DNA of 64,000 nt from a virus (lineage: Duplodnaviria > Heunggongvirae > Uroviricota > Caudoviricetes), in the IMG/VR virus record IMGVR_UViG_3300028797_000099, positions 64,001 through 128,000 of that record. One strand, 5' to 3'. Positions 1,488 to 57,611 of this stretch are shown in pieces. Made by a program: the position numbers and the translations under genes. The stretch's first letter is position 1. Every line of letters starts with the position of its first letter. Under the pieces are notes generated by a model. It saw nothing but the letters and a program-made list of their open reading frames with translations. It was not told the origin of the DNA and ran no database searches.

Positions 1488-3179
1488 ATGAGAATGAACC
1501 CACTTTTTAACCATTACGCTTCCAAGCTAGATTTAACACTTCCGCAATACGAAGCGGTATGTGCATTGGCTAATTCCTTGTTTGAAGATGCGGCATCGAC
1601 AGCAAAGCACAAGACAAAAAGAGCCATACGTAATGCATTGCCCGCATTTAACATTTTTTTCGATGAAATCGCAAAAGACGACGAAAAAAATCCGATATTG
1701 ACTGAAAGAGGCAATACACAGACCGTACTCGAATATCTTGAAAATAATGTGAGGGCTACATTCTTCCACGACGGAACAACAAGTATAAAGTTCGAGCCAG
1801 GCGCCGCTAGAATTGCTTACGGCGAACTTGGCATGCAAGCCCACGAGGATACTAGAAAACTTACTCTCCTTGGAAAGATACTACAAGAAATTTCGATAGC
1901 TCATGAAACCGAATACGACTCAAACCTAAACGGCATGACGTTCAATGAACTTAAAGACCGATTCGGTGCATCAATAAATAAAGCCGACGCCGAAACCGAA
2001 GAAAAGTTAAAAACCAAGACCTACGATAAAAGTGATTACATAATCAAATGGATTCCAGATTTCAGTACAGCACAACAGTATAGTCAATACACTGACTATG
2101 GGCCAAACGAACACTGGTGTTTGACTCATGATAAAAGAATGTGGGACAACTACACAGGCTCGCATAACGAAAACAAAGTATATTTCTGTCATGTTCCTAA
2201 TTTCGAATCCGTTCCGAGAGAAATTGGACCTAATGCGCCGCTTGATGACTATGGACTTAGTTTGGTTTCCGTTATAGTAATGCCAGATAAGCACTTGCGA
2301 GCAGTAACATCTCGTTGGAATCATACTAACGGTGGTTCTGATGGCGTCATGAACAAGGAGCAATTATCCGATTTGCTTGGCGGATACGTATTTAACATTT
2401 GCCCCCCTTACAGCAGAGAAGAAGTCATCAAACGAGGATATATCTACCTGGACGAAGTTCAGCAAATGCTCGATGATGGTATTGACCTGAGTAAATATAT
2501 TGATGGTAAAGGGCGTATTAAGATTAATGACAAAATGAATATTCTGCACGGGCGGAAACTTTTGTCTGACCAATGGTTTGATTGGATAGATGACTTCAGG
2601 AATGGATTCGCCCTTGTTCAATTGAATGAAAAAGAAAACTACATCGACATAGAAGGAAATCTGGTGTCCGACCAATGGTTTGAGGAGGTAGAGGACTTCG
2701 TTAATGGATTCGCTAAGGTTTACTTGAATGGAAAAACGAACTTAATCAACACAGCGGGAAAGCTACTGTCTGACCAATGGTTTGATAGGATAGGTATTAT
2801 CAAAAATGGATTCACCCATGTTAAATTGAATGGAAAATACAACTTCATCGACACAGAAGGAAATCTGGTGTCCGACCAATGGTTTGATGCTGTCTCATTC
2901 GATAATGGATTCGCCCGTGTTCAATTGAATGGAAAATACAACTACATCGGCACAGAAGGAAATCTACTCTCTGGCCAATGGTTTGATGTGGTAGGGTGGT
3001 TCAGTGGTGGATTCGCCCGTGTTAAATTGAATGGAAAATACAACTTCATCGACACGAAAGGAAATCTTCTATCTGACCAATGGTTTGATGAGGTAGGTAG
3101 GTTCGATAATGGAGTCGCTGTTGTTCGATTGAATGAAAAATACGCCAACATCGATACAGAAGGAAATATAAGGCGGTAG
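1488..3179 (+). CDS. WG (KWG Leptospira-type) repeat protein with shared N-terminal leader
   Basis: C-terminal tandem repeats LSDQWFD..FxNGFAxVxLNGKYNxIDTEGN; N-terminus LFNHYASKLDLTLPQYEAV..LFE. Confidence 0.8.
   Translation: MRMNPLFNHYASKLDLTLPQYEAVCALANSLFEDAASTAKHKTKRAIRNALPAFNIFFDEIAKDDEKNPILTERGNTQTVLEYLENNVRATFFHDGTTSIKFEPGAARIAYGELGMQAHEDTRKLTLLGKILQEISIAHETEYDSNLNGMTFNELKDRFGASINKADAETEEKLKTKTYDKSDYIIKWIPDFSTAQQYSQYTDYGPNEHWCLTHDKRMWDNYTGSHNENKVYFCHVPNFESVPREIGPNAPLDDYGLSLVSVIVMPDKHLRAVTSRWNHTNGGSDGVMNKEQLSDLLGGYVFNICPPYSREEVIKRGYIYLDEVQQMLDDGIDLSKYIDGKGRIKINDKMNILHGRKLLSDQWFDWIDDFRNGFALVQLNEKENYIDIEGNLVSDQWFEEVEDFVNGFAKVYLNGKTNLINTAGKLLSDQWFDRIGIIKNGFTHVKLNGKYNFIDTEGNLVSDQWFDAVSFDNGFARVQLNGKYNYIGTEGNLLSGQWFDVVGWFSGGFARVKLNGKYNFIDTKGNLLSDQWFDEVGRFDNGVAVVRLNEKYANIDTEGNIRR
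2560..3175 (+). repeat. About six tandem ~100-bp coding repeats (WG repeats)
   Basis: Recurrent gaccaatggtttga and ggattcgc...aattgaatggaaaatacaac. Confidence 0.85.
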
Positions 3180-3224
3180 GGAAATACTCGACCCATCATC
3201 CTTTCTGAACGCTTTATAGCAAAC

Positions 3225-3265
3225 AAAAAAGGCCCGACTATTAAAGTCGGGCCCATATGTTTTAT
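3225..3265. terminator. Intrinsic terminator between convergent units
   Basis: aaaaaa-ggcccgac-tattaaa-gtcgggcc. Confidence 0.7.
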
Positions 3266-3284
3266 CTTTCGGCTTTGCAATTAG

Positions 3285-3358
3285 TACCCGAGACAGGGGT
3301 CGAACCTGTCACCAACGGTTTAGAAGACCGTCGCTCTAGTCCACTGAGCTACTCGGGC
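3285..3358 (-). tRNA. tRNA-Arg(TCT)
   Basis: Cloverleaf; ACGGT-CTTCTAA-ACCGT. Confidence 0.9.
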
Positions 3359-3369
3359 AAGTTCATTAG

Positions 3370-3443
3370 TCGGCAGAGTGGGACTCGAACCCACAAAATC
3401 TTGGGTTTGAACCAAGCACGTATACCAGTTCCATCACCTGCCG
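3370..3443 (-). tRNA. tRNA-Leu(CAA), short variable loop
   Basis: CTTGG-TTCAAAC-CCAAG; Leu-type D loop, 5-nt variable region. Confidence 0.8.
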
Positions 3444-3450
3444 AATTTAG

Positions 3451-3534
3451 TCGGTAAGGGGGGACTCGAACCCCCACGTCCTTACGGACACCAGCCCCTC
3501 AAGCTGATGCGCCTACCAGTTCCGCCACCTACCG
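3451..3534 (-). tRNA. tRNA-Leu(GAG)
   Basis: TCAGC-TTGAGGG-GCTGG; long variable arm. Confidence 0.9.
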
Positions 3535-3552
3535 AGATGGAAATAAAAGTAA

Positions 3553-3634
3553 TCGGAAAGGTGGGACTCGAACCCACACACCTTTCAGCACAAGAGCCTA
3601 AATCTTGCGTGTCTACCAGTTCCACCACAATCCG
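3553..3634 (-). tRNA. tRNA-Leu(TAG)
   Basis: CAAGA-TTTAGGC-TCTTG; long arm; two U-U mismatches in acceptor stem. Confidence 0.85.
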
Positions 3635-3648
3635 AAAAAAAGTTATAG

Positions 3649-3721
3649 CAGGACGTGATGGACTCGAACCACCGACTAACAGTTTTGGAGACTGCAGACC
3701 TACCAACTGGTCGAACGCCCT
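3649..3721 (-). tRNA. tRNA-Trp(CCA)
   Basis: GCAGT-CTCCAAA-ACTGT. Confidence 0.9.
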
Positions 3722-3754
3722 GTAATGGATGGCCTTTCGGCCACCCGAATGAAA

Positions 3755-5098
3755 CTACTCTTCGGTGTTTCCATTCATCTTTTCGTACTCAGCAATGTAC
3801 TTGAAGATACCGTCGCTGAATCCGTTGATGTGAATGAACTTACCGTATTCAATTCCGTTCTGGTACGTTGCTACGTTCACAATGTACTTGTGCGGAATTC
3901 TGAGTACTTCCTTGCTGAAGTAGCTACCAGAAGACTGTTCGTCCGTAATGATAATCAATCGGTCGAACGGTCTGTTGTTAGCCTTGACAGCATCGTTCGT
4001 GCTTCTCTGGATGTCAGTACCACCCATAGAACGAGCACAACGGTCAGCAAGAGAGAAACCCTTCTCCGTGCAAAGATGTGCAGTATTGTCAAAGGTGTAG
4101 ACCTTCGTGAACTCGCACACTTCGTTCATGATAGCAGCGATGGAAGCTGCTGCCTGAGCACGGGTGACTTCGCCCTTGCCGGACAACTGACAACTCATGG
4201 AACCCGACGTGTCAACCATGAAGAGAGTGTTCCCTTCAAGCTTGTCGAACGTTTCCCTGGCGGATTGAAGCATTGCTGCTTCAAGCTGCTTGGAGTATGT
4301 TCCAGCGCTGTACTTGTTGGCCGTATAGAAGTTGTACGGCATGACACCACGAACATTCATCTTCTCGATGCCATCCACGATTGCTCGTTGTGACACCTTT
4401 GCCTGCTCCATGTTGCGGAGGTTCCTCAACAGGGCAAGCGCACCGAGCCTGTTCTGGGAAAGAAGGTTCTCGAAGACTTCCTTCTTATCCTTGCCTGCGC
4501 TCAACTCAGTTTCCCAGGTAAGCGGTGTTGCAAGGCTGTCGTCCACAATCTTCTTGTAGAGAGCGTTCGTTTCGTCGTTCGGGGCCTTCGGGTGGCAAAG
4601 CATGACCGCATCCTTCAAGGAAACCGTCTTCTTCGTGCCCTTGTACTTACCGAACTGGTACTCGTCGAACTTGGCGAATGCCAATGCGAGACCCTTCTGC
4701 AACTGCTTCGGCAACGTCTTCTTGCCTTCCGCAAGGAACATTGCAAGCAACTCGGTGATGTCATCAACACGGGTTACGGTCGAATTGACAAGTTCCTTGG
4801 TAAGCTTGCCTTGCTGTGCAAGAACAGTCAGCATGAACAACGGGGTATGACGAAGGTGATATTCGTGTTTTACCTTGTTCAATGTTGCAATGGCGAACTC
4901 GGTGCTGACCTTGCCCATGTACTCCTTGATGCGGTCCTTGACCGACTGACCGTCCTCATAGAACGTATCCTCGTTCAAAAGACAGCTGAGCACGGTACGC
5001 TGCAGCTTCTCCTCGTAGCCAATGTGTGATGCCTTTCCACCCTCGTAAGTAGACACCGGGGTAGATACCTTTCTCTTGTTAATCGACGCCATAATCAT
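3755..5098 (-). CDS. rsr: TROVE-domain Ro60-like RNA-binding protein with C-terminal vWA domain
   Basis: TYEGG, L.RTVLSCLL.ED.FYE, LRHTPL, KFDEYQFGKY, TWETELS, ALLRNLRN; vWA DTSGSM, GGTD, IITDEQ. Confidence 0.92.
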   Translation of the reverse strand: MIMASINKRKVSTPVSTYEGGKASHIGYEEKLQRTVLSCLLNEDTFYEDGQSVKDRIKEYMGKVSTEFAIATLNKVKHEYHLRHTPLFMLTVLAQQGKLTKELVNSTVTRVDDITELLAMFLAEGKKTLPKQLQKGLALAFAKFDEYQFGKYKGTKKTVSLKDAVMLCHPKAPNDETNALYKKIVDDSLATPLTWETELSAGKDKKEVFENLLSQNRLGALALLRNLRNMEQAKVSQRAIVDGIEKMNVRGVMPYNFYTANKYSAGTYSKQLEAAMLQSARETFDKLEGNTLFMVDTSGSMSCQLSGKGEVTRAQAAASIAAIMNEVCEFTKVYTFDNTAHLCTEKGFSLADRCARSMGGTDIQRSTNDAVKANNRPFDRLIIITDEQSSGSYFSKEVLRIPHKYIVNVATYQNGIEYGKFIHINGFSDGIFKYIAEYEKMNGNTEE

Positions 5099-5138
5099 CT
5101 CCTTTGTTGATTAGGAATTGTTGATGTTGAAAAAATAT

Positions 5139-5277
5139 TGCCAGATGCCGGACTCGAACCGACAACTTCCTGCTTGGATTATCTAAGTAGCACATCCAAC
5201 GCCACAGACCATATGGACTGGGAAAAAGCGAACGTGAACATTGAGGGCTGGCGCTCTACCTATTGAGCTAATCTGAC
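5139..5277 (-). ncRNA. tRNA-shaped Y-like RNA A (tRNA-Gly-like body, ~65-nt insert in anticodon loop)
   Basis: Acceptor GTCAGAT/ATCTGGC, D arm, T arm TTCGAGT; insert CGCTTTTTCCC...GTGGCGTTGGA..TACTTAG. Confidence 0.75.
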
Positions 5278-5287
5278 ATAAATGTAG

Positions 5288-5432
5288 TGCCGATGGAAAG
5301 ATTCGAACTTTCAATAGTTTTTAGCTAAGTAACTCTCACTATCGCAGCGGTTTCCCGAGAAAAGCGCAAGAGGAACATTTCCCCTGCCAGTTATCAACCT
5401 GTGACACAGATTGACGGGGAAATAACATCGGC
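5288..5432 (-). ncRNA. tRNA-shaped Y-like RNA B (D arm replaced by long hairpin)
   Basis: Acceptor GCCGATG/CATCGGC, T arm GAAAG-TTCGAAT-CTTTC, module GCTTTTCTC...TGCGATAG..TTACTTAG. Confidence 0.65.
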
Positions 5433-5445
5433 ATAAAAATTGTAG

Positions 5446-5579
5446 TACCATAGGCTGGATTTGAACCAACGACCACAAGTTCCTCATCGAAGTAAGCCAT
5501 TCAAACGTCACCTTTTCAGGGAAAAAAGACGAAAGGCGATTTCATATACTCGTGCTCTACCAGACTGAGCTACTATGGT
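5446..5579 (-). ncRNA. tRNA-shaped Y-like RNA C
   Basis: Acceptor ACCATAG/CTATGGT, D and T arms; insert CTTTCGTCTTTTTTCCC-TGAAAA-GGTGACGTTTGAATGGCTTACTT. Confidence 0.75.
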
Positions 5580-5586
5580 ATTTTAG

Positions 5587-5670
5587 AGGAGAGAACAGGG
5601 TTCGAACCTGCGTGTCGTTTCCGACAAAGCTTTAGCAAAGCTCCGCTTTTACCAATTCAGCCATCTCTCC
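5587..5670 (-). tRNA. tRNA-Ser(GCT)
   Basis: GAGCT-TTGCTAA-AGCTT; long arm. Confidence 0.9.
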
Positions 5671-5674
5671 ATAA

Positions 5675-5748
5675 TGTGCTTGGCCAGAGTCGAACTGGCG
5701 ACCTACAGTTTAGGAAACTGTTGCTCTATCCAGCTGAGCTACAAGCAC
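5675..5748 (-). tRNA. tRNA-Arg(CCT)
   Basis: ACAGT-TTCCTAA-ACTGT. Confidence 0.9.
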
Positions 5749-5755
5749 AAGCGGA

Positions 5756-6037
5756 TTACTTCAATGTATCATCAGTGTATTCCAACGATACCTTGTCATT
5801 GCCGAAAAAGATTTCGACAGTAACAGTGTAAACCTTTTCAGTGTTGTACCTGTCCCAAACTCGCCACAACTTGGCACCAACGGAAGCTGCGGCACCCTGG
5901 AAGATGTCGCATACGCTATTAAGGACATCCTTCTTAGGCAAGGTCGTATCTTTGCTATCGACCGTTTTAAGCAACTTCGCCATCTTGTCAGCAACGGCTG
6001 CCTTTACAGCATTAACATCATTCAATGATGCACTCAT
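5756..6037 (-). CDS. Hypothetical protein inside tRNA array
   Basis: AAAGGAG SD before ATG 6037 (MSASLNDV...). Confidence 0.65.
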   Translation of the reverse strand: MSASLNDVNAVKAAVADKMAKLLKTVDSKDTTLPKKDVLNSVCDIFQGAAASVGAKLWRVWDRYNTEKVYTVTVEIFFGNDKVSLEYTDDTLK

Positions 6038-6065
6038 ATCATCTCCTTTACTGTTTAACATTTCG

Positions 6066-6150
6066 AGCGCACGGTAAGAGTCGAACTTACGTGGGCGTTC
6101 AGCCTAGAGGTGTTGCAGACCTCCCCCTTCGACCGCTTGGGTACGTGAGC
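6066..6150 (-). tRNA. tRNA-Cys(GCA) with long variable arm
   Basis: GAGGT-CTGCAAC-ACCTC; U73; Tyr-like D loop and long arm. Confidence 0.75.
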
Positions 6151-6154
6151 AAAA

Positions 6155-6755
6155 ATCGCCATTCTCTTTATAACAAACCGAATGGCGAAGGCCGTGTATC
6201 CTTATATAGACACAATCATCCACGCTTATGTACACTAACATGGCCAGTTTTTCGGATTCACCGCAGGGAACAGTACCTGATTGTAACAACGAAGACGTCT
6301 GTTATCTTGACTTAATGCACCTCTTGCAACAACATTGCTGTACCCGCCCTCATTAAGGACCTGCCTCTATTCGGAACGGCAGCTGCAATTCTTTGTCGGT
6401 ACACATGGGCTTTAATACCCACATTCCTTCGTGCAATATATCCTGTTAGAAAGAACAGGAACTTGTGCATCATCTTCTTCCCTTGGCTTCCACACCTTGA
6501 ATGAGAGCAGTCTGCCCTCACCGATTTGGGTTTAACTAATCGGGATGATGCATCGGGAATCACACGGATAGTAGCATGCCAGTCACGGTGAACTATCTGC
6601 GTCCTATCCATAACTACCGCCAACTGCATTGTGGCGAAGACGGCAGTCATTTTTTAGTGATTGTGGAAAATCTTGTCGGCACCCGTTATGTGGCTTTCGC
6701 CGCAACCTTTGGCTTTTATAACGTGTCTTGCAACACATGACCATCTTTCAGTGCC
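6155..6755 (-). ncRNA. Candidate ~600-nt structured RNA
   Basis: No convincing ORF; multiple perfect inverted repeats; sits between tRNAs. Confidence 0.35.
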
Positions 6756-6762
6756 TATTTAG

Positions 6763-6835
6763 TTGGGGTAGCTGGACTCGAACCAACGAATATGGGAATC
6801 AAAATCCCATGTCTTACCAACTTGACGATACCCCA
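6763..6835 (-). tRNA. tRNA-Gln(TTG)
   Basis: TGGGA-TTTTGAT-TCCCA. Confidence 0.9.
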
Positions 6836-6842
6836 GTAATAG

Positions 6843-6915
6843 TACCCCATCAAGGGTTCGAACCTTGGACCCGCTGATTAAGAGTCAGCTGCTCTTCCAA
6901 CTGAGCTAATGAGGC
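6843..6915 (-). tRNA. tRNA-Lys(CTT)
   Basis: GCTGA-CTCTTAA-TCAGC. Confidence 0.9.
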
Positions 6916-6924
6916 GAAACTTCG

Positions 6925-6997
<73 letters not shown>

Positions 6998-7001
6998 ATA
7001 G

Positions 7002-7074
7002 AGCGGATAATGGGGTTCGAACCCACAACAACCTGCTTGGAGGGCAGGAACTCTACCAGTTGAGCTACATCCGC
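7002..7074 (-). tRNA. tRNA-Gly(TCC), C at position 33
   Basis: CCTGC-CCTCCAA-GCAGG; U73. Confidence 0.85.
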
Positions 7075-7082
7075 AAAATTAG

Positions 7083-7152
7083 TTAACCTTCGTGAATTCG
7101 AACCACGACACAGAACGAACCGAAGCCCGTTGTGCGCCAAACCTGGAGGCTA
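7083..7152 (-). ncRNA. tRNA-like RNA with UUCG tetraloop in place of anticodon loop
   Basis: Acceptor TAGCCTC/AAGGTTA, T arm CGTGG-TTCGAAT-TCACG, AACGGGC-TTCG-GTTCGTT. Confidence 0.55.
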
Positions 7153-7404
7153 AGATTTGTGCACCAATCTATTGCACCATCAGCTCTTTGGGACGCTGAC
7201 ACCCCACCTTCATCTCGGGACGGTGCGAAACGCTATCTATTTGACACTCGCCAAGGCATAGAATTATCCTTATGTGAAGTTCACCCGCATTACCAGATAC
7301 GGTTTTCGACGCCATATCCTTCCTGCCCTTTTTACTTCCAACTTTAGAGGCCGTTTGATTTGCAATGTCATCACAGTAAATAAACGGTAAGAAAGCAAGA
7401 TTCG

Positions 7405-7480
7405 TGGGCCCCCCGAGACTTGAACTCGGAAAACCTTCGGGTTATGAGTCCGCTGCTCTGACCTATTGAGCTAGAGGCCC
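7405..7480 (-). tRNA. tRNA(CAT), probably Ile2 (lysidine type)
   Basis: GGGCCTC acceptor, CTCATAA loop; resembles bacterial Ile2; weak anticodon stem. Confidence 0.7.
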
Positions 7481-7491
7481 AGAAACAATTT

Positions 7492-7623
7492 GATTAGGAT
7501 AGCACCAATGAGCAGCACGTTGTATTACTACAACTCGGTCTCACAGCTACCATTTCCCTCCCTTGGAGGAGAGCGTATTAAGCACTCAGCATTACTACAT
7601 TGAGTTCATTTATACGACTAATC
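7492..7623 (-). ncRNA. Structured RNA H, closed by GATTAG/CTAATC, with anticodon-like hairpin (TAA)
   Basis: GAGTG-CTTAATA-CGCTC followed by TCCTCC-AAG-GGAGGG and GTTGTA-GTAA-TACAAC hairpins. Confidence 0.4.
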
Positions 7624-7627
7624 TTAG

Positions 7628-7758
7628 CGCCAGCGGCAGGACTCGAACCTACGACCCCGAGCTTCCTAATGCTAAGTAACCCATTCCAAAACGCCACCCT
7701 TGCGGGAGAAAATGCGGACAGGTGTTGTACGTGCTCTAACCAACTGAGCTACGCTGGC
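7628..7758 (-). ncRNA. tRNA-shaped Y-like RNA D (56-nt insert, 8-nt anticodon-position loop)
   Basis: GCCAGCG/CGCTGGC acceptor; CG[insert]AGC-ATTAGGAA-GCTCG; T arm. Confidence 0.78.
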
Positions 7759-7766
7759 AAAAAAAA

Positions 7767-7859
7767 TCCAGGTAAATGCAGAAACCGATGTGCCCATCGC
7801 AAGGCACTATACATTAAGAGTGTACAAGGTCTATGTATCGGTTATCTATCGACACTGGA
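7767..7859 (-). ncRNA. Permuted Y-like RNA G displaying a Lys(CTT) anticodon stem-loop
   Basis: TCCAG-TGTCGAT...TTTAC-CTGGA closing stem; GTACA-CTCTTAA-TGTAT. Confidence 0.62.
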
Positions 7860-7870
7860 TGAATTTCTAG

Positions 7871-7999
7871 TACCAGGGGCAGGACTCGAACCTACGACCA
7901 CGAGCTTAACAGGCTAAGTAACCCGTTCCAAACGCCACCCTTGCGGGAGAAAAACGGACAGGTATTTTTACGTGCTCTAACCAACTGAGCTACCCTGGA
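7871..7999 (-). ncRNA. tRNA-shaped Y-like RNA E (tRNA-Asn(GTT) plus 55-nt insert between nt 28 and 29)
   Basis: Removing the insert yields a 74-nt cloverleaf with CGAGC-CTGTTAA-GCTCG. Confidence 0.8.
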
Positions 8000-8008
8000 G
8001 AAAAATTA

Positions 8009-8095
8009 AAGTCAGGTAAAAGACGAAAGCGCATTGCCATAGGCGAACGGATTTGCAGTCTGTTTCTAAGTAACGCTTTCAAACGACACTGACTT
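8009..8095 (-). ncRNA. Permuted Y-like RNA F displaying a GCA anticodon stem-loop
   Basis: AAGTCAG-TGTCGTTTGAAAGCG-TTACTTAG...AACAGA-CTGCAAA-TCCGTT...CGCTTTC-GTCTTTTAC-CTGACTT. Confidence 0.68.
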
Positions 8096-8097
8096 AG

Positions 8098-8186
8098 TGG
8101 GTTGAATAGGAGTCGAACCTACAATGTTTACCCAGAGGGAACGGATTTACAGTCCGTTGCGAAACCACCATCCTCGCAGTCAACCC
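8098..8186 (-). tRNA. tRNA-Tyr(GTA)
   Basis: AACGGA-CTGTAAA-TCCGTT; long arm. Confidence 0.85.
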
Positions 8187-8201
8187 AAATAAAATTGTTA
8201 C

Positions 8202-8274
8202 TGGAGCATAGGAGATTCGAACTCCTGACCCCCTGCGTGCAAAGCAGGTGCTCTACCAACTGAGCTAATACCCC
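8202..8274 (-). tRNA. tRNA-Ala(TGC)
   Basis: CCTGC-TTTGCAC-GCAGG; G3.U70. Confidence 0.92.
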
Positions 8275-8335
8275 ATAAATTGCAAAGCCAAAATTTCAAT
8301 CAGCGGGCTAACAACTCGTGTCAACCACGGTCAGA

Positions 8336-8364
8336 AAGATAGAAACTAAGACATCGTTTGTCAA
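8336..8364 (-). promoter_or_regulatory. Internal sigma70-type promoter of the RNA array
   Basis: TTGACA-N17-TATCTT with AT-rich upstream tract. Confidence 0.7.
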
Positions 8365-8398
8365 GGGTTTCTACCAAAATTTTCAAACTTTTTTTTAG

Positions 8399-8480
8399 TC
8401 GGGTACGTGAGATTCGAACCCACACTCCTCGCAGAACATCGCCCTGAACGATGCGTGTCTACCAATTCCACCAGAACCCG
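8399..8480 (-). tRNA. tRNA-Leu(CAG)
   Basis: CATCG-TTCAGGG-CGATG; long arm. Confidence 0.9.
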
Positions 8481-8486
8481 AAGTAG

Positions 8487-8561
8487 TTGCGGAGAACGGA
8501 CTTGAACCGTTGACACACGGATTATGATTCCGTTGCTCTAAACCAACTGAGCTACACCGCA
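8487..8561 (-). tRNA. tRNA-Met(CAT), elongator
   Basis: ACGGA-ATCATAA-TCCGT. Confidence 0.8.
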
Positions 8562-8564
8562 TCG

Positions 8565-8855
8565 GTGATGACGCTTTTGGACTATCAGTCTACGGTCTTT
8601 CATAGCAGGTACGTCATCGTGGGCAACCTCAAACTTCTCCAGTTGTAGTCGTTTGCCACCTCGGGTTCGTAAGCACCTCGCATGCTTCAACCCGTCATTA
8701 GCTCTTTTACGAGAAGAACGCTAATGGCCTTTTAAATGGCGGCGTTTTAGCCTGTCACCGAGCAGGGGCCACGTTTCCCGTCCATCCCATGCCCGTCTCG
8801 GCATGATTGACTCAAATTGACGGGACCCGCCTTGCAAGCACAACAAAATCATAGA
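8565..8855 (-). ncRNA. Candidate structured RNA (~290 nt)
   Basis: Serial stems GATGACG/CGTCATC, GGCAA/TTGCC, CGGGTT/AACCCG, CATTAGC/GCTAATG. Confidence 0.35.
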
Positions 8856-8863
8856 ATAGTTAG

Positions 8864-8934
8864 TCCGCCAGTCGAGACTCGAACTCGAACTAAGGGAATC
8901 ACAATCCCTTGTGCTACCGTTACACCACTGAGGG
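8864..8934 (-). tRNA. tRNA-His(GTG), atypical (A73, no encoded G-1)
   Basis: AGGGA-TTGTGAT-TCCCT. Confidence 0.75.
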
Positions 8935-8939
8935 GGTAG

Positions 8940-9014
8940 TACTCCCAATAGGATTCGAACCTATGACCCCTTGCTTGTAAGGCAAGCGCTCTGAACCAAC
9001 TGAGCTATGGAAGT
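8940..9014 (-). tRNA. tRNA-Val(TAC)
   Basis: CTTGC-CTTACAA-GCAAG. Confidence 0.9.
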
Positions 9015-9022
9015 AAATTTAG

Positions 9023-9105
9023 CGCAACCAGCGAGACTTGAACTCGCACGCCCATAGGGCACCAGCGTGACAGGCTGGCCTGGCTACCAATTTCAGCATG
9101 GCTGC
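9023..9105 (-). tRNA. tRNA-Asp(GTC) with long variable arm
   Basis: CCAGC-CTGTCAC-GCTGG; arm TGCCC-TAT-GGGCG; G73. Confidence 0.78.
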
Positions 9106-9112
9106 ATACATA

Positions 9113-9186
9113 TAGCTCCAACGGGACTCGAACCCGTATTACCGCCTTGAGAGGGCGACGAACTAGGCCAGTTATTCGATAGAGCC
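9113..9186 (-). tRNA. tRNA-Glu(CTC)
   Basis: TCGCC-CTCTCAA-GGCGG. Confidence 0.9.
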
Positions 9187-9194
9187 AAAATACA

Positions 9195-9376
9195 ATGGAT
9201 AGGTGAATATGCGGAGTATCACCGTGACAGCTTCCCCGTACCGATGCGAAATCTGCTTATAACCTAAAACAAACCGTTTCGCTTTTACGCCTATCTTGTC
9301 GGCACGTATATCTGTCGTAGCTGGCATGTAGGTTGTTCCTTCAGGCAACCAGCCCGCTGAACAGAGTTCTATCCAA
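9195..9376 (-). ncRNA. Candidate ~180-nt long irregular hairpin RNA (6S-like shape)
   Basis: GGATAG/CTATCC ends; GACAG/CTGTC, CGTGCCGA/TCGGTACG, GCGAAA/TTTCGC stems separated by bubbles. Confidence 0.4.
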
Positions 9377-9382
9377 TGTTAG

Positions 9383-9459
9383 TGACACTAGCAGGACTCG
9401 AACCTGCGACCTTCTCGTTCGTAGCGAGACGCTCTAAATTCCGACTGAGCTATAATGCC
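9383..9459 (-). tRNA. tRNA-Arg(ACG)
   Basis: TCTCG-CTACGAA-CGAGA. Confidence 0.9.
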
Positions 9460-9468
9460 ATAAAAGTA

Positions 9469-9541
9469 AGCGTCATGTCGGACTCGAACCGACGACCTTC
9501 TCCATGGCAAGGAGACGCTCTACCAACTGAGCTAATGACGC
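9469..9541 (-). tRNA. tRNA-Gly(GCC)
   Basis: TCTCC-TTGCCAT-GGAGA; U73. Confidence 0.9.
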
Positions 9542-9549
9542 AGTAAAAG

Positions 9550-9642
9550 AAGCGAGGGTGGGATTCGAACCCACGGATGACAGGGCCACTGCCACCGACG
9601 GTTTTCAAGACCGCTGCAATAAGCCAGCTCTACCACCTCGCC
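9550..9642 (-). tRNA. tRNA-Ser(TGA)
   Basis: GCGGT-CTTGAAA-ACCGT; long arm. Confidence 0.9.
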
Positions 9643-9650
9643 ATATTTAG

Positions 9651-9724
9651 TCGGAATGGCAGGATTTGGACCTACGACCTCTTGCTCCCGAAGCAAGCGC
9701 TCTACCAGACTGAGCTATATTCCG
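9651..9724 (-). tRNA. tRNA-Pro(CGG)
   Basis: CTTGC-TTCGGGA-GCAAG. Confidence 0.88.
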
Positions 9725-9731
9725 AAATTTA

Positions 9732-10005
9732 TTTAAACACAAACTTACAGGCGTCCTAATTTCAAGGACGGATTAAGGAGCACACTTGGTGGTTAACCCA
9801 AAGTTTATCTCCCCCATTCTTATTTCAAATGGTCTCACGTGGCATATTTTAGTAGAGCCAATACTACACCTCTGCGACCATCATTCTGGTATTCATCTAA
9901 TTCGCAGAGACAGATTCCTCATCCCTGAGTTTTCCCCATCAGGGTTAGCCCGTTAGCATGAAATCAAGAACGATGCAACACGGGTTCTACTCATTTGTGT
10001 TTAAA
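9732..10005 (-). ncRNA. Candidate ~275-nt multi-hairpin RNA
   Basis: 12-bp terminal stem TTTAAACACAAA/TTTGTGTTTAAA enclosing at least 6 hairpins. Confidence 0.5.
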
Positions 10006-10019
10006 CAAAGTTTGATGAA

Positions 10020-10240
10020 TTCGAGGAGCTGCGGGGGTTACGGCATCCTTTCCGCTTGTCGCCGAGGCCATCGGTTTGTCATCTATGTTGCGAACGGGCT
10101 CACCTACTAGCCCTTACATAGACCGAAGATGGTTATCGTTACCATTTAATAGCAGGCTTCATCACGCCTCCCGTCCATCGATATCCGAACGAAACGGGTC
10201 TGGCCCTCAATGACGGACATTTAGCCAGATGTTTTCTAAC
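10020..10240 (-). ncRNA. Candidate structured RNA (~220 nt)
   Basis: Stems TCTGGC/GCCAGA, CCCGT/ACGGG, ATGGT/ACCAT, GGGCT/AGCCC. Confidence 0.3.
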
Positions 10241-10330
10241 TCCGACAGTAAGACTCGAACTTACGACCTGAGCTTTAGGTGACTACTTATGGCTACTGAG
10301 TGAACCATATTACACCTATAATTTAATTAG

Positions 10331-10403
10331 CTCCGATGGAGAGACTCGAACTCCCGACCAGCTCATTACGAATGAGCTGCTCTACCAACTGAGCTACAAC
10401 GGA
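10331..10403 (-). tRNA. tRNA-Thr(CGT)
   Basis: GCTCA-TTCGTAA-TGAGC. Confidence 0.88.
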
Positions 10404-10409
10404 ATGTAG

Positions 10410-10483
10410 TAGCGCCAACGGGACTCGAACCCGTATTGCCGCCTTGAAAGGGCGATGAACTAGGCCAGTTATTCGATAGCGCC
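10410..10483 (-). tRNA. tRNA-Glu(TTC)
   Basis: TCGCC-CTTTCAA-GGCGG; near-copy of tRNA-Glu(CTC). Confidence 0.9.
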
Positions 10484-10493
10484 AAAAATATAG

Positions 10494-10567
10494 TCCGCAA
10501 CCCTGGACTCGAACCAGGAACCTCCACCTTATCAGAGTGGCTATCTAACCAGTTGCTATAGCTGCGG
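10494..10567 (-). tRNA. tRNA-Ile(GAT)
   Basis: CCACT-CTGATAA-GGTGG. Confidence 0.85.
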
Positions 10568-10654
10568 ATAAAAACAATAGGTGGGTGGTTTATAACCACC
10601 AAAATCCCACCCCGTGGGCACCTACTTTGTTTCACCTATTGTTTAATACTTTCG

Positions 10655-10728
10655 TGCCAGCTTCTGGAGTCGAACCAGACTACTCGGATTTTCAGTCCGG
10701 CCCAATCACCGGGTTTGGGTTAGCTGGC
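10655..10728 (-). tRNA. tRNA-Phe(GAA)
   Basis: CCGGA-CTGAAAA-TCCGA. Confidence 0.85.
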
Positions 10729-11063: not shown

Positions 11064-11066
11064 ATA

Positions 11067-48882: not shown

Positions 48883-49539
48883 TTATTTCAGCATATTCAG
48901 CTTTCCGATGTAGTTCCGCAAGCCTGCGGCAAGCTTGTCAAGGTTCGGCTTGAATTTCGGAACCTGGTCCTGGCTTCCTTGTGGGAACCAAGAAGCCGGG
49001 TCGGAAACAATCTGTGCCAACTGTTCCATGGAATTCAGGACAGCGATAAGGTGTTGTCTGTCATTGATGCCAGCGTTACCCTTGATTGACGCCATCTTCT
49101 GATTCATCGCATTGATGTTTCCCTCGACTCCAGAATTTTCCGTTCCGTTAATCAAGTCAAGAGCATTGTTCAACTCTTCGAGTCTTCCGTCGGCATCAAT
49201 AGCGTTGCAATAATCCCTTGTTGCAGAATCAGTGTCGTTTCCATACGGAGTTTCAACGATTCGCTGGCCACCGGGAAGCTTGTTCGGCCTGCCCTGCTGC
49301 TGTCCATAGCCCTGTCCATAACCCTGTCCTTCAAACTGAGGACGTTGCTGGTATGCACCCGGCGGCATGATGCCGGGATTTCCCATCGGCTGTTGATATC
49401 CCTGCTGGGGATAGCCCTGTTGAGGATAGCCCTGTTGAGGATAGCCCTGCTGAGGGTAATACTGAGGCTGCTGAGGATATCCCTGTTGCGGTGCGTACTG
49501 CGGTTGCTGAGGCTGTCCAAAGTATTCGTTATTGTTCAT
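48883..49539 (-). CDS. Protein with PQQGY low-complexity N-terminus and helical C-terminus
   Basis: PQQGYPQQPQYYPQQGYPQQGYPQQGYPQQGYQQ. Confidence 0.8.
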   Translation of the reverse strand: MNNNEYFGQPQQPQYAPQQGYPQQPQYYPQQGYPQQGYPQQGYPQQGYQQPMGNPGIMPPGAYQQRPQFEGQGYGQGYGQQQGRPNKLPGGQRIVETPYGNDTDSATRDYCNAIDADGRLEELNNALDLINGTENSGVEGNINAMNQKMASIKGNAGINDRQHLIAVLNSMEQLAQIVSDPASWFPQGSQDQVPKFKPNLDKLAAGLRNYIGKLNMLK

Positions 49540-52460: not shown

Positions 52461-54800
52461 TTATAACGTCTTGGTACCCAAAAGCATCGGCAAACGGTGT
52501 TGCCAACGCAACACGAAATTGATTTGGTCCTCGTCCCAGTCATCACCCCCGACATAATCCATGTAGTCGATACAGGTTACGACATTCGTGTCCATCACAC
52601 ACACCCGCTGTCGGCACTCATGGCAGAACATCGAGAGTTCCGCAGCAATATGGTCATCGCCGATTATATAACCATTCAGTATTCGTACACGAAGAATATC
52701 TGGTATCATACTCGCCCTGATTGCAAATACGGGCCCGCCAAGAATCGCCACATCGGTAAGCTCGCCAAATCCTAGTTCCCCGATGATTTTCTTCGTACTG
52801 TTGTCCTTAATCGACAATCCCTCATAGCAACCGTAGGAGTCGTGACTGTCATGCCAGTTGAACGTGTTAGGAATAGTTTTCCAGCCATATGTTCCAACCA
52901 TACCCACATCAGTTGGAAGCTTGTCAAGTTTTTCCTTCCAGAATATGTCAGAAATACAGGTAGAACTGTCCATGAACATGAACCAGTCAGGAGGAACGCT
53001 GAATGTCACTTCCTCCATCTTGAACATGCCGGAGAACAACGCCTTTACACTAAGGGAAACCCTATCCGCACTGTTTTTCTTTGTGAAGAAATGGTTCGGA
53101 TGATACACATAATCGTATGTCTTGTATCCGCCATCAAATCTCTTGTACAGGTCAACCTCTCCCCTCTTGTAAATGCAACGGAAAATCTGCGGTGATGTCA
53201 ACGACTTGACCACATCATTGTTCGTAACGGCACTGCACTTAACGGGAGTCAACCCAAGGATATTCCTCATCTTGTTGTCATGGTCGATTTCCTGCTGTCT
53301 AATCCTCTTCAACAGACGCTTCTTTTCCGACATGACAAGACGGGGTTCGTTAATCTTCGTGTCAAGTGCAAGGGTAACATCATCGTCCGTAACTTCGTGG
53401 TACTGATACGGACTCTTCTTACGCATATCGACATACTTCTTGTGCATCATGAGGATTGAGAACTTTCCCTTCTTATAGCGTTTGGCATTCTCCTCCTTGT
53501 CAATCTTCAATTTCTTCCTGATAAATTCATGGGTGATGTCGATAAAGTTCCCGCCCTTGATTAGGGCCTCGATATCGACATAGTTGATGCCGACCATGAC
53601 TTCCTTAATCTTCTGAGAATGATAGGTATACCACGTCATTATATTGCCCGAAGCAAGCTTGACATGAACTTTCTCACTGTTCTTTGCGTATGTATCAATC
53701 CACTTGTCGTTAACACCGTATCTGTTCTTGATATGCTTCCTTGTTATGAACTCCTTTCCAAGTCCATACAGTATTCCGCAATCCCTGTCATAAATGTACT
53801 TGTCAAGGTCTTCCACAAGGAACATGGCAAACCCTTTTCCTGAACGGCTCAACTTGGCGCCATTGGCTTTTCGCACAGGCTTTATCAGTTTCTTTTCATA
53901 CCTCGCCCGCAGCCATTCCTTCTTCGATGCACCGACATATATCCTAGCCATATCGCTGGAAATAATGTCCTTCAACGGGTTGTAAATAGCGATATCACCA
54001 GCATGTGATGCAATGAACTTTCGTATATCATCGGACGAGTAGCGGTCTGTAACATAACCATCCATCGTCTTCATCTTACGTGGCTTATACACTGCAAAGA
54101 ATTCGTTAGATTTCGCCGTATTTCCAATAATGTCAAGAACATCCTCGAAGGAAATCGTTGCGTTAGCCTTTGCCACAATATCAAGAAAACGGTTATGACG
54201 ATAGTACACGTCAAGGTCTTTCTTGTAGTAAACGACGTGCTTCTCTCCGTCTGTAGACATCTGTTCCTTGAATGGAATGTCCTTAACAATCGACTCAAAC
54301 TGTCCCTGGGACATGCCGAGGTATTCTGCGGCTTCCATCCTACCGAACGTGGAGAACGGAAGGTCTTTCCTTCTAAACTCTATGGACAGAAGTTTGCACC
54401 GTTCCACCACCTCTGGTTCACGGTAAAGCCTGTCCCCATTACTATCGAGAATGTAGAATAAGTTGTGAAGGATATCCCTGTCGATAACCCATTCTACCGT
54501 GCGGTTGAGGTTTCGGCAAATGTATTTCAAACTGATATACTTTACATTGTCCTTCAACACACGGTCAGCTTCCGAAAGTTCGTACAGCCCGTACTCAACA
54601 TTCGCTTGGAGTATCTTTTTAGTGTCCGTCGGTATCTCGTACTTTATCTCGTCATAGTTAACCTTTCCTTCGGATTCATTCCGAAGAAAGTCCATGGCAG
54701 CAATCTCCTCGTCATTGACAACGGGAGATATGTCGTAGTCAGATGCAAGAGCAAGAGTGTCTTGCGGTAATTTCCAAAGTTCGTCGTGTTTAGGATTCAT
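52461..54800 (-). CDS. Fusion of tandem HTH-like region and C-terminal glycosyltransferase-2-like domain
   Basis: GRMEAAEYLGMSQ, ISFEDVLDIIG, SSDMARIYVG; C-terminal VGMVG...VAILGGPVFAI...W..DQINF..RW..RLP. Confidence 0.55.
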   Translation of the reverse strand: MNPKHDELWKLPQDTLALASDYDISPVVNDEEIAAMDFLRNESEGKVNYDEIKYEIPTDTKKILQANVEYGLYELSEADRVLKDNVKYISLKYICRNLNRTVEWVIDRDILHNLFYILDSNGDRLYREPEVVERCKLLSIEFRRKDLPFSTFGRMEAAEYLGMSQGQFESIVKDIPFKEQMSTDGEKHVVYYKKDLDVYYRHNRFLDIVAKANATISFEDVLDIIGNTAKSNEFFAVYKPRKMKTMDGYVTDRYSSDDIRKFIASHAGDIAIYNPLKDIISSDMARIYVGASKKEWLRARYEKKLIKPVRKANGAKLSRSGKGFAMFLVEDLDKYIYDRDCGILYGLGKEFITRKHIKNRYGVNDKWIDTYAKNSEKVHVKLASGNIMTWYTYHSQKIKEVMVGINYVDIEALIKGGNFIDITHEFIRKKLKIDKEENAKRYKKGKFSILMMHKKYVDMRKKSPYQYHEVTDDDVTLALDTKINEPRLVMSEKKRLLKRIRQQEIDHDNKMRNILGLTPVKCSAVTNNDVVKSLTSPQIFRCIYKRGEVDLYKRFDGGYKTYDYVYHPNHFFTKKNSADRVSLSVKALFSGMFKMEEVTFSVPPDWFMFMDSSTCISDIFWKEKLDKLPTDVGMVGTYGWKTIPNTFNWHDSHDSYGCYEGLSIKDNSTKKIIGELGFGELTDVAILGGPVFAIRASMIPDILRVRILNGYIIGDDHIAAELSMFCHECRQRVCVMDTNVVTCIDYMDYVGGDDWDEDQINFVLRWQHRLPMLLGTKTL

Positions 54801-54879: not shown

Positions 54880-55833
54880 TTACGAGAACACGTTCATTCC
54901 AGCGTTCAGGGCTAGCCTAACGTCATCGTCAGCAACACCGTTGTCCAGCGAACTGGGCTGGGACAGCATTTCCTTGGTAACGTCAGGGCTGTTGTACACC
55001 TTGTTCTGGGACAGTCCCTGCCCAAGGGCTTCAAACGCAGCAGACTTGCTGCCGAAGCCGACGGAGGCTAGTTTGGGCGCAGGACGCATCCTTTTGCTGA
55101 CAGCAGCGCTTCCACCAGCAGGATACCTGACCTCGTTAACTGCGAGGTTATTCTTCCGATAGTTCGTCAACCCGTTGTCCATGATGTCGTCATGCATCAG
55201 GCCGTCGGCTATCTCGTTCAATTCGTTCATGTCAATTTGGTTGGGAGCCTTTATTTCACCGATTCCGCTAAACTCCCTGCTAGAAGTCTTCTCGTCTTCA
55301 ATCCCGTTTATGTACTTGAAAATGTCTTCACGTTTAAGGTCATCAAGAGAAACATCTCGGTTCGGGTCAGTGAAGTATTCAACCGCCTTCTGCTGGAGGT
55401 CTGGACGGTAACCGTTGGTTTCACGGAGAACCTTGTCTTCAATCTTCGCATACATGAGCTGCTTCATAGCACGCTTGTATTCGACCACTTTCTCTTGAAG
55501 TTCCGCCTTCAACTGTGCAACCGCTTTCTTCGCTTCTCTTTCCCGTGTAGTTTCTATCTGACACTCTTCGAGGACATTCACAATCTTTTGCAACGCCTCA
55601 AACAAATGTCCGTTGACGGCGTTGTCGCCCATGTTGTCAACCTTTTTCTGAACAGCTGGTTTTACCAACGCATCGAATTGTCCAGATACCGCCTCGACCA
55701 AGGACTTGAACTGTCGGTCGCCCTTCGCCTCGTAGTCGGATATAGCCTTGCTATACCCACCCTCAATCTTCGATGCAATCTCGGGGGATATAGTACCAAG
55801 TTCTTCTTTTGTTAAGATGTCTGACAGTTGCAT
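54880..55833 (-). CDS. T4 gp22-like prohead core scaffold protein
   Basis: Follows the gp21-like gene; coiled-coil; HLFEALQKIVNVLEE resembles the gp22 ELFES..GLK.LF.E block. Confidence 0.6.
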   Translation of the reverse strand: MQLSDILTKEELGTISPEIASKIEGGYSKAISDYEAKGDRQFKSLVEAVSGQFDALVKPAVQKKVDNMGDNAVNGHLFEALQKIVNVLEECQIETTREREAKKAVAQLKAELQEKVVEYKRAMKQLMYAKIEDKVLRETNGYRPDLQQKAVEYFTDPNRDVSLDDLKREDIFKYINGIEDEKTSSREFSGIGEIKAPNQIDMNELNEIADGLMHDDIMDNGLTNYRKNNLAVNEVRYPAGGSAAVSKRMRPAPKLASVGFGSKSAAFEALGQGLSQNKVYNSPDVTKEMLSQPSSLDNGVADDDVRLALNAGMNVFS

Positions 55834-55842
55834 ATTGTCACC

Positions 55843-56568
55843 TTATCCACGCAAATTGTTGAGTAGAGCAATCCTGTTATAGCAATGACACTTATTAGTG
55901 CGGAAATCAATGTTGCGGTTCATAACAACTTCCTTGCGGCAACGGTCAATAGATTCTGTAAGAATCTTGTGAGCCTTCCTCTTGCCTGCATCGCTTTCGA
56001 AGTGGCTAGTGATTAGGGCCTTATTGTCGAAGCTCGGGTTTCCTACAACGTCAACAGTAATCAAAGTGTACTCAGGGTCAATTTCTTCATAACCTGTGGG
56101 AAGTTCGATGGTATCGCCTGCTCCACGCAGAGAGTAGCCGGGAGTATATCCCGCCTTGATGAGGCCAGCAAGATTTCGACCCGCATCAGTATCCTCTGCG
56201 ACAACCATTCGGCAGTAAAGATTCTTTCCGTCCATACGGAGTTCCTCGATTACTGCACAGGTCTTCCACAAGTTCATTTCGAAAATCGGGTAATCTTTCG
56301 GGTTTCCTTCCATGTCTACACGAGGGTGGTTCAATTCAGCCGCCAATCGTCCAAGAGGAATCTTCGTCTTGTTCAGCTTCGCAACTTCCCTGGCGATGAT
56401 TGCACGAGGATATGAACGACCGTTGATACCCGGTTCGTCACAGACAATAGCCGTGCCTTCCAGGATAAGTCTCTTAACCTTATTTCCATAAATGTCGGTA
56501 CGTTCGGCGACAGACACCTTGCTGTCATCGAAATTAGGTACGCTAATGATTTCCCGCATCTTTCCCAT
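55843..56568 (-). CDS. T4 gp21-like prohead core protease
   Basis: LILEG...NGRSYPR, AELNHP, AGRNLAGLIKAGYTPGYSLRGAG, LITVDVVGNPS. Confidence 0.9.
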   Translation of the reverse strand: MGKMREIISVPNFDDSKVSVAERTDIYGNKVKRLILEGTAIVCDEPGINGRSYPRAIIAREVAKLNKTKIPLGRLAAELNHPRVDMEGNPKDYPIFEMNLWKTCAVIEELRMDGKNLYCRMVVAEDTDAGRNLAGLIKAGYTPGYSLRGAGDTIELPTGYEEIDPEYTLITVDVVGNPSFDNKALITSHFESDAGKRKAHKILTESIDRCRKEVVMNRNIDFRTNKCHCYNRIALLNNLRG

Positions 56569-56581
56569 GACGCTCCCCTAC

Positions 56582-56761
56582 TCACACTTTCTTGGGTGAG
56601 TTAATACTTTCCATGACTATCTTGGTTTTTTCCTTCATGCACATACTATACACGGACTCCATATAGGCATTGACCATTTTTTCCACATTGGTGGAGTCGC
56701 CGTTAAGCAGATAGCTTATCAGCGAGCGTGCGTCATTGTCTTTAAGTCCTGGTATGGCCAT
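56582..56761 (-). CDS. Small gp67-like prohead core protein (59 aa); not in the ORF track
   Basis: MAIPGLKDNDARSLISYLLNGDSTNVEKMVNAYMESV...; directly upstream of the protease, behind TATAAACTA. Confidence 0.5.
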   Translation of the reverse strand: MAIPGLKDNDARSLISYLLNGDSTNVEKMVNAYMESVYSMCMKEKTKIVMESINSPKKV

Positions 56762-56864
56762 TACTGAAAACCAATAATCATTACATTCGTATATAGTTTA
56801 TAATAGAGAGCGTCGGGCCAATATCTCTCGATACTGACCCATACCCTAAAATACGTTTTTTCTA

Positions 56865-57611
56865 CTAAATTCCGTTCTCGTCAGGTGAAATATTCTCATC
56901 GGGAACAGGAGGCAACATAGGCTCCTCCACTGGATTCTCCTGAACAGGCGCCTGAGCCGGAGTAGCAGGCTCTTGTTTCGGTGTCACTTCTGCCGGAACG
57001 TGGTATGTCCTTGCCGCTTTTAGTATAGTCATCCAGTTTGTCATCACTGCGGTAAATGCCGCCAGCAAATGTTTGCATACCCGATTCTTGTGCTGCGGGT
57101 CCCTTACCTTAGGCGCAATGTCTTCACCTCCCGAAGGGACTCCATCGATAGATTCGTAGCCAGAAAGGTAGCTGTCGTAAATATGTTTTAGGTTGTACTT
57201 CATGCCGCTCCAGTTGAAGTCCGGGCACGTACAGAATACCTTGACATCACATGAACGAAGCAACGCAATCTTCTTTGCAGGCGCCATCGCACCTTGCGCC
57301 TGACTGAACAACGTCCCCTGCTTCGGTATGAACTCGATGTATACATCATAGTTCTTCTCGTTGCTTGCCGAAGGAACAACAAAGTGAACGACCGCATGAC
57401 CACTTTTCGGGTCTCTTGTCAGGTCGTTATAGTGGAATGTAAGGGTCTTGCTCCTGTATTTCCTTAGGTTATCCGCCGCCCCCGAAAGGTCTGCCATAGT
57501 AGCCTCGAAGCACGCATCGTACAGACGAGATACGCTCTCATACTGACGCATACTTAGACCTAGATTGCCTACGGCTTCCATAAAGATTTTCTTCTCGTTC
57601 ATATATTCCAC
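56865..57611 (-). CDS. SWIM-type zinc-finger protein with shared leader
   Basis: FCTCPDF...VCKHLLA; N-terminus IFMEAVGNLGLSMRQYESVSRLYDACFEA. Confidence 0.75.
   Translation of the reverse strand: MEYMNEKKIFMEAVGNLGLSMRQYESVSRLYDACFEATMADLSGAADNLRKYRSKTLTFHYNDLTRDPKSGHAVVHFVVPSASNEKNYDVYIEFIPKQGTLFSQAQGAMAPAKKIALLRSCDVKVFCTCPDFNWSGMKYNLKHIYDSYLSGYESIDGVPSGGEDIAPKVRDPQHKNRVCKHLLAAFTAVMTNWMTILKAARTYHVPAEVTPKQEPATPAQAPVQENPVEEPMLPPVPDENISPDENGI

Follow-up and report, generated by a model that had tools for sequence, protein, structure and literature searches.

A common helical leader on unrelated proteins of an uncultured giant phage, a candidate signal for capsid targeting and cleavage

The stretch of phage DNA analysed here (the window) comprises 64,000 nucleotides, positions 64,001 to 128,000 of the IMG/VR virus record IMGVR_UViG_3300028797_000099, and contains eight genes for proteins that begin with a common leader of 31–35 residues, together with a prohead protease of the bacteriophage T4 gp21 type. 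The source contig is 175,176 bases long and 42% complete by CheckV estimate. Its close relatives are IMG/VR contigs as well, and one of them, 419,423 bases long and with terminal repeats, represents a complete genome. The head region had no DNA-level match among cultured phages by megablast. The window additionally carries 36 tRNA genes in a single-strand array, by which all 20 amino acids are covered.

A common leader on eight window proteins had been claimed in the initial annotation, which was made from the nucleotide letters and their translations. Translation confirmed all eight N-termini, which form a gap-free alignment of about 33 residues. The profile scan proposed there was carried out on all six-frame open reading frames (ORFs) of the contig and returned the eight window proteins and four more (Table 1). 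The 12 leaders gave E-values of 5e-17 to 3e-7 after iteration with relatives, the next ORF following at 0.48, and reversed and shuffled ORF sets produced nothing below E = 1 with the leader profile. All 12 matches lie at the beginning of their ORF, no more than a few residues from an in-frame ATG. For 21634 and 45185 the starts are ATGs inside longer ORFs, chosen by the fit of the leader alignment and located downstream of a promoter box; the start of the SWIM-type gene, formerly placed at a GTG (57611), is most likely the ATG at 57602.

The complete 419-kb relative holds 18 strong and 3–4 marginal copies of the leader (about 21), all but one of them N-terminal, and 13 copies were found in a 277-kb relative. 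When 1.84 billion representative proteins were searched exhaustively with the profile, 142 protein clusters, defined at 50% identity, contained the leader at E ≤0.001, and a word-indexed search of a larger collection gave at least 415 leader proteins. The label is N-terminal, as first described, in 12/12 cases in the contig and in 108 of the 142 clusters, but in relatives it is internal in 26. No model covering the leader was present in Pfam or PHROGs, and a literature search found no description of such leaders in metagenomic giant phages.

Table 1. Leader genes, promoter copies and further features; positions refer to the window unless another sequence is named.
Feature	Position	Strand	Remarks
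Leader + 563-aa cargo, C-terminal WG repeats	1488–3179	+	leader 1488–1586, ends L-F-E; TATAAACTA 1461–1469
Leader + 289-aa cargo, unknown family	14614–15483	-	leader 15382–15483, no terminal Glu
Leader + 29-residue acidic tail, 64 aa in total	16734–16928	+	leader 16734–16838, ends F-P-E
Leader + 539-aa cargo	17039–18658	-	leader 18566–18658, ends A-C-F-E
Leader + 566-aa cargo, paralogue of the preceding gene	18668–20368	-	leader 20276–20368
Leader + 177-aa cargo	21101–21634	-	leader 21539–21634, ends A-C-F-E; first of four genes in putative late operon downstream of TATAAACTA 21641–21649
Leader + 1357-aa cargo, unknown family	41112–45185	-	leader 45084–45185, ends V-L-F-E; TATAAACTA 45216–45224
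Leader + 245-aa SWIM-type zinc-finger protein	56865–57602	-	leader 57504–57602, ends A-C-F-E
Four extra leader genes	contig 57745(-), 59157(-), 136587(+), 26622(-)		profile scan
Prohead protease, T4 gp21 type	55843–56568	-	Peptidase_S77
Candidate scaffolding protein, 317 aa, helical	54880–55833	-	directly downstream of protease
59-aa ORF, two M-E-S sites	56582–56761	-	downstream of TATAAACTA 56794–56802, between SWIM-type gene and protease
Candidate endolysin, Amidase_2 + SH3-like tail, leaderless	20365–21150	-	inside leader-gene operon
TATAAACTA examples	1461, 21646/21649, 36975/36997, 56802, 60244		
Polyprotein-like family member	L078:3194–4651 (419-kb relative 63194–64651)	+	also P0141–P0219
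Cys-rich leader variant genes, 355-kb relative (G004)	81602(-), 115269(-), 265754(-)		
tRNA gene array	3284–11997	-	36 genes
260-aa protein	15940–16722	+	downstream of TATAAACTG box
Collagen-repeat tail-fibre-like protein	47190–48770	-	PF01391, several tail-fibre PHROGs
218-aa protein	48883–49539	-	beside collagen-repeat gene
779-aa gene after scaffold candidate	52461–54800	-	

Position statistics were collected from 62 distinct leaders, the denominators varying by position. The Phe of helix 1 was present in 61/61 leaders, and Leu/Ile positions recur at helical spacing. The leader ends in [A/V/I]-C-[F/L/Y/M]-E, followed by Ala or Ser; at this junction P1 is Glu in 54 of 57 leaders and P1′ Ala or Ser in 42 of 44, while P3 is Cys in 44 of 61 and one of Cys, Ile or Leu in 56 of 61. 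Helix 1 often contains F-(x)-E-S/A and thus repeats the kind of word found at the leader end. The consensus end given in the initial annotation holds in its Glu for most window leaders, with the exception of the 289-aa protein, the leader of which ends K-I-T-M-N without Glu, and the end is F-P-E in the 64-aa protein.

The helical nature ascribed to the leader was borne out by two AlphaFold2 models, both of which give a helix-turn-helix. In the 539-aa cargo protein, a helix at residues 2–11 and a turn are followed by a second helix at 16–31 (predicted local distance difference test, pLDDT, 70–84) and a disordered linker at 33–58. In the SWIM-type protein, the helices span residues 3–12 and 18–40, with confidence below 50 at residues 34–36, just past F-E.

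A 260-aa protein encoded immediately before the 64-aa leader protein has the N-terminus M-K-S-L-F-E-R-I-D-K-L, which resembles helix 1 of the leader only, and the leader profile gives no match there. The F-N-x-x-F-F-G-G-x-L-P stretch that follows its N-terminus looks SprT-like when read by eye.

The promoter word reported upstream of the leader genes as TATAAAC is in fact TATAAACTA, and six of the 12 leader genes have it 15–39 nt ahead of their start. The contig contains 26 copies, compared with about 1.3 expected from its length alone, and copies are also found upstream of baseplate-wedge, collagen-like fibre and protease-operon genes. As TATAAACTA resembles the T4 late-promoter word TATAAATA, it probably acts as the late promoter. 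Since the box at 21649 is located just 15 nt from the ATG, the mRNA from it would be almost leaderless. Most of the six leader genes without the word directly upstream follow a promoter-bearing gene on the same strand, which for the genes at 59157 and 15483 could be traced only in part. Several copies occur as back-to-back divergent pairs. The collagen-like gene codes for a collagen-repeat, tail-fibre-like protein, and the 218-aa product of the gene beside it has Q/P/G/Y-rich repeats in its first 90 residues.

Half of the leaders directly downstream of one promoter, together with an exchange of leaders between genes (see below), is what would be seen if the leader were a functionless leftover of common descent or of repeated 5′-end gene conversion, spread along with the promoter. 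However, six leader genes are not immediately preceded by a promoter copy, and the same positions are kept across the 62 distinct leaders and the 142 clusters at a pairwise identity of only 14–49%, which argues that the peptide is under purifying selection. We regard a leftover as the least credible of the explanations weighed here.

The mature parts downstream of the leader had been called unrelated, which holds for at least 11 families in an all-against-all BLASTP comparison but not for the 539-aa and 566-aa proteins, which are paralogues with 44% identity. Within this pair the leaders are 88% and the mature parts 48% identical, and in a database orthologue of the same cargo the relation is reversed, with 84% identity in the mature part and 44% in the leader. 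In one region that is otherwise collinear with the 419-kb relative, three leader-cargo genes of the contig are not found in that relative, and the gene of the 289-aa protein is missing there from its syntenic place. These comparisons indicate that leaders and cargo recombine independently, and that leader-cargo cassettes are gained and lost between close relatives, as has been reported for the internal-protein genes of T4.

The leader genes are dispersed over the genome and their products range from 64 to 1357 aa. On most cargo proteins, Pfam and PHROGs returned nothing. The WG repeats reported in the protein starting at 1488 were recovered (PF14903, 2.6e-25). The SWIM domain fell below the Pfam threshold (E 0.013), and the structural model had no match in the PDB below E 0.5, but its C-x-C...C-x-H motif is invariant and the fold matches jumbo-phage SWIM-type proteins in BFVD. 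The two paralogues share invariant blocks (R-F-H-R-T...D-S-I...G, N-Y-G and E-D-I), and structural matches in the Atlas included rows for DarT, PARP and Tpt1, at template-modelling (TM) scores below 0.5, next to a profile match to DarT1 (8baq) at E 0.25. In the AlphaFold model of the 539-aa cargo, pLDDT averages 57 and is below 50 in the putative enzyme domain; an ADP-ribosyltransferase fold of the DarT/PARP/Tpt1 type in this cargo is a lead only.

Among cargo proteins of the contig there is one weak peptidoglycan-binding domain, and the cargo of relatives includes SLT, PG_binding_1/3 and Amidase_2 domains. One SLT cargo has, as read from the sequence, an apolar stretch right after the leader. 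The operon headed by the 177-aa protein contains three leader genes and a candidate endolysin, which has no leader of its own; the complete relative has an additional second amidase that does bear one. Wall enzymes are thus not tagged with the leader as a rule. Phage_lysozyme and Glyco_hydro_25 were found neither in the contig nor in the complete relative.

Among the domains annotated on cargo proteins, peptidoglycan-binding, SLT and amidase types prevail, with PG_binding_3 in 80 of the best 120 database leader matches, as might be expected of a signal that sorts proteins to another late destination, for example by envelope export of wall-directed proteins for lysis or superinfection exclusion. 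However, all eight window leaders have a net charge between -3 and +2 and no more than six consecutive apolar residues, so the leaders are not Sec, Tat or signal-anchor export signals. Moreover, one leader protein is a conserved neighbour of the head protease, most cargo has no wall-related domain, and the endolysin candidate is leaderless, all of which makes such sorting very improbable. The same hydrolases, and a leader that ends in a cleavage-type motif, could be explained by a pro-domain that keeps dangerous enzymes (wall hydrolases, possibly an ADP-ribosyltransferase) inactive or soluble until proteolysis, with no role in targeting. The same 33 residues would then need to act as an inhibitor of no fewer than 11 unrelated folds, from a 64-aa acidic peptide up to a 1357-aa protein, across a disordered linker, while the enzyme most in need of restraint, the endolysin candidate, goes without. 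We consider this improbable, if slightly less so than export.

In SWIM-type orthologues the junction Glu is invariant, and distant clades have an unrelated N-terminus of 17–20 residues ending in (I/V/L)-(I/V/L)-E. A Glu that stays at the junction although the N-terminus has been replaced fits a cut site, and the N-termini of these orthologues suggest that the long leader may have grown from a short T4-like one. The gene itself is located between a large gene (57612–60212) and the protease, a place conserved in all related clades. A distant relative of 355 kb, searched for a uniform leader of its own, gave only small sets, namely one shortened variant and three unrelated proteins with a three-Cys variant, V-C-x-K-x-x-C...F/M-C-E-S/A, which may be a metal- or disulfide-stapled hairpin; its short SWIM-type N-terminus has no family of copies in that genome.

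Internal leaders are concentrated in one polyprotein-like family, to which 18 of the 26 clusters with an internal leader belong at 50% identity, and which occurs in the 419-kb relative and is absent from the contig studied here. Its members have a constant N-terminal module and a variable middle with a zinc ribbon, H-E-x-x-H or other motifs; Pfam and PHROGs returned nothing. The word Y-K-L-(L/I)-G-E-S/T stands 8 residues before the conserved Met that opens the internal leader, and C-M-E-G/S words recur between later modules without the rest of the leader. Such recurrence without the hairpin speaks for recognition of the C-M-E-G word itself, most simply by the protease. Given the internal leader, either the hairpin may also lie away from the extreme N-terminus, or the internal Met serves as a further start site.

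The leader could, as an alternative, be a permanent docking domain that binds a common virion structure (an inner head body, the portal or the tail) and is never cut, C-F-E being part of the binding surface. Phages commonly have shared N-terminal anchors on varied tail fibres, and a hairpin that folds as a unit with a conserved hydrophobic face, the two window members without a clean Glu site, and the internal position in relatives would all agree with such a domain. However, after the Phe, the best conserved residues are the P1 Glu and the P1′ Ala/Ser, which lie at the end of the module before a disordered linker. The Glu is moreover retained where the remaining N-terminus is replaced, the C-M-E-G word occurs between modules without a hairpin, and the cargo is not fibre-like. 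Uncut docking is accordingly unlikely in our estimate, though the likeliest of the competing explanations.

The gp21 homologue reported in the window was confirmed as Peptidase_S77 (PF03420, 50.2 bits against a cut-off of 27, 2.8e-13; phrog_207, 1.9e-30), and its nearest cultured matches are gp21 proteins of T4-like phages with 28–33% identity. The C-terminal tail of the protease carries H-F-E-S, which is kept within this clade, and L/I-T-E-S/C, which does not vary in any of the clades. The 59-aa ORF occupies what we take to be the position of T4 genes 67/68. T4-type and giant-phage head proteases trim their own C-termini (PMC5694885). The scaffold candidate has F-E-A sites at residues 78 and 267, the second of which is kept in position (x-F-x-E-A/S) in distant relatives. 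Its N-terminus had been considered as leader-like, which was dropped as the leader profile has no match there. Complex prediction of the leader with the scaffold candidate scored 0.00 in both runs, which were made without controls and count neither way.

Taken together, we consider it fairly probable (roughly 65%) that the leader represents a longer and structured form of the T4 capsid-targeting sequence (CTS), which the head protease would remove. Late in infection, the dozen leader proteins of the contig, or about 21 in the complete relative, would be made with an N-terminal helix-turn-helix of 31–35 residues, and the hairpin would dock the cargo onto the assembling prohead core, around which the shell would close. 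The gp21-type protease would then cut after the Glu of [A/V/I]-C-[F/L/Y/M]-E, before Ala or Ser, and so release the cargo within the head. In the following infection this cargo, of which peptidoglycan-binding and -cutting proteins are a part, would exit together with the DNA. What this capsid-targeting and cleavage reading predicts at the level of sequence was in all cases as expected, including a cargo that resembles known ejected proteins and, as an internal negative control, an endolysin candidate without leader. We regard the reading as partly supported; docking to the core, cleavage, presence in the virion and ejection, as well as the naming of the cargo as "effectors", are steps that we infer.

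Several points weigh against removal by the head protease after capsid targeting. The leader of the 289-aa protein has no terminal Glu and that of the 64-aa protein ends F-P-E, the Cys at P3 departs from the T4 preference, many cargo proteins are strongly acidic in contrast to the basic internal proteins of T4, and the leader is internal in 26 of 142 clusters. The enrichment of F-E-A/S words is modest, with two in the scaffold candidate against 0.2 expected and one in the protease against 0.15. Neither phmmer against the PDB nor a scan of the contig with the Pfam models Gp23 and Portal_T4 gave a match for capsid or portal, and the 779-aa gene following the scaffold candidate resembles glycosyltransferase clusters, not capsid proteins, by Atlas language-model features (0.89–0.90). 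The "head module" therefore rests on the protease and the gene order. The phage, furthermore, is known from metagenomes alone.

A further-reaching version of the proposal may also apply, on which we are more reserved and which we hold to be a real but somewhat doubtful prospect. The hairpin would here be an independently folding docking domain that evolved from a short T4-type CTS when a second helix was inserted. It would mark out over 20 proteins per genome as an injected proteome, with wall hydrolases and a DarT/PARP-like enzyme among them; the cassette would be traded between genes, and one family would carry it internally, in a polyprotein cut by the head protease. A docking domain of this kind would provide a portable packaging tag and a metagenomic key to the delivered proteome.

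If the leader does act in capsid targeting, its profile would list from sequence alone the proteins that uncultured giant phages carry in their heads and deliver. The delivered set, with about 21 proteins per genome and 142 clusters, would be much larger and more varied than the three internal proteins and Alt of T4; it would include cell-wall enzymes and many unknown folds, and would turn over fast between close relatives, as is the case for arms-race genes. A capsid-targeting signal could then be a small folded domain and not just a ten-residue peptide.

The closest known system is that of T4, in which IPI, IPII, IPIII and Alt carry a CTS that is removed by the prohead protease gp21 (Mullaney and Black 1996, reviewed in PMC9026906, PMC3012670, PMC8442874), and the CTS is all that the internal proteins have in common (PMC3012670, PMC9026906). 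Cleavage by T4 gp21 occurs behind (I/L)-x-E, and I-A-E forms the end of the T4 CTS (PMC9026906, PMC8442874); in M-K-T-Y-Q-E-F-I-A-E, residues 4 and 7 are important for targeting, residues 8 and 10 for processing (PMC9026906). The leader is similar in being an N-terminal tag on unrelated mature parts with a hydrophobic-x-Glu end, in a genome with a gp21-type protease and a cargo set that differs between close relatives, as in T4. It also has a near-invariant Phe at about position 7, a likeness to the T4 Phe and hydrophobic-Glu pattern which over ten residues is beyond statistics and may be taken as a lead. It differs in length (31–35 against 10–19 residues), in being a helix-turn-helix instead of a short peptide, in the mostly Cys P3, and in serving about 21 cargo proteins per genome, often acidic and including wall hydrolases, compared with a handful in T4. 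As homology is not supported by length and sequence, the leader is described as working like a CTS, not as its homologue.

In phiKZ, 201phi2-1 and SPN3US, head and ejection proteins have long N-terminal propeptides, which are thought to target them into the prohead (PMC5694885, PMC10052503) and which are mostly 80–160 residues long and cut at A/S/G-x-E (PMC5694885). These phages resemble the present one in being giant, in having a gp21-related protease and in propeptides longer than that of T4, and in the SPN3US ejection protein gp47 the propeptide is directly followed by a transmembrane segment (PMC5694885), an arrangement that the SLT cargo with an apolar stretch appears to share. However, giant-phage propeptides are shared only between paralogues, such as SPN3US gp53 and gp54 with an identical 15-residue N-terminus, whereas the compact leader of about 33 residues, with mostly Cys at P3, is common to at least 11 unrelated families.

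Outside these phages, a short portable element places a protein inside an HK97-fold shell in the cargo-loading peptides of encapsulins and in the helix-loop-helix coat-binding domain of the P22 scaffold. Both lie at the C-terminus, undergo no proteolytic removal and have no sequence relation to the leader; the likeness is in working only. From the precursor leaders of ribosomally synthesised and post-translationally modified peptides the present leader differs in its cargo of 64–1357 aa and in genes scattered over the genome. The principle is already known from T4, and the gain would be one of breadth and detail, not of kind.

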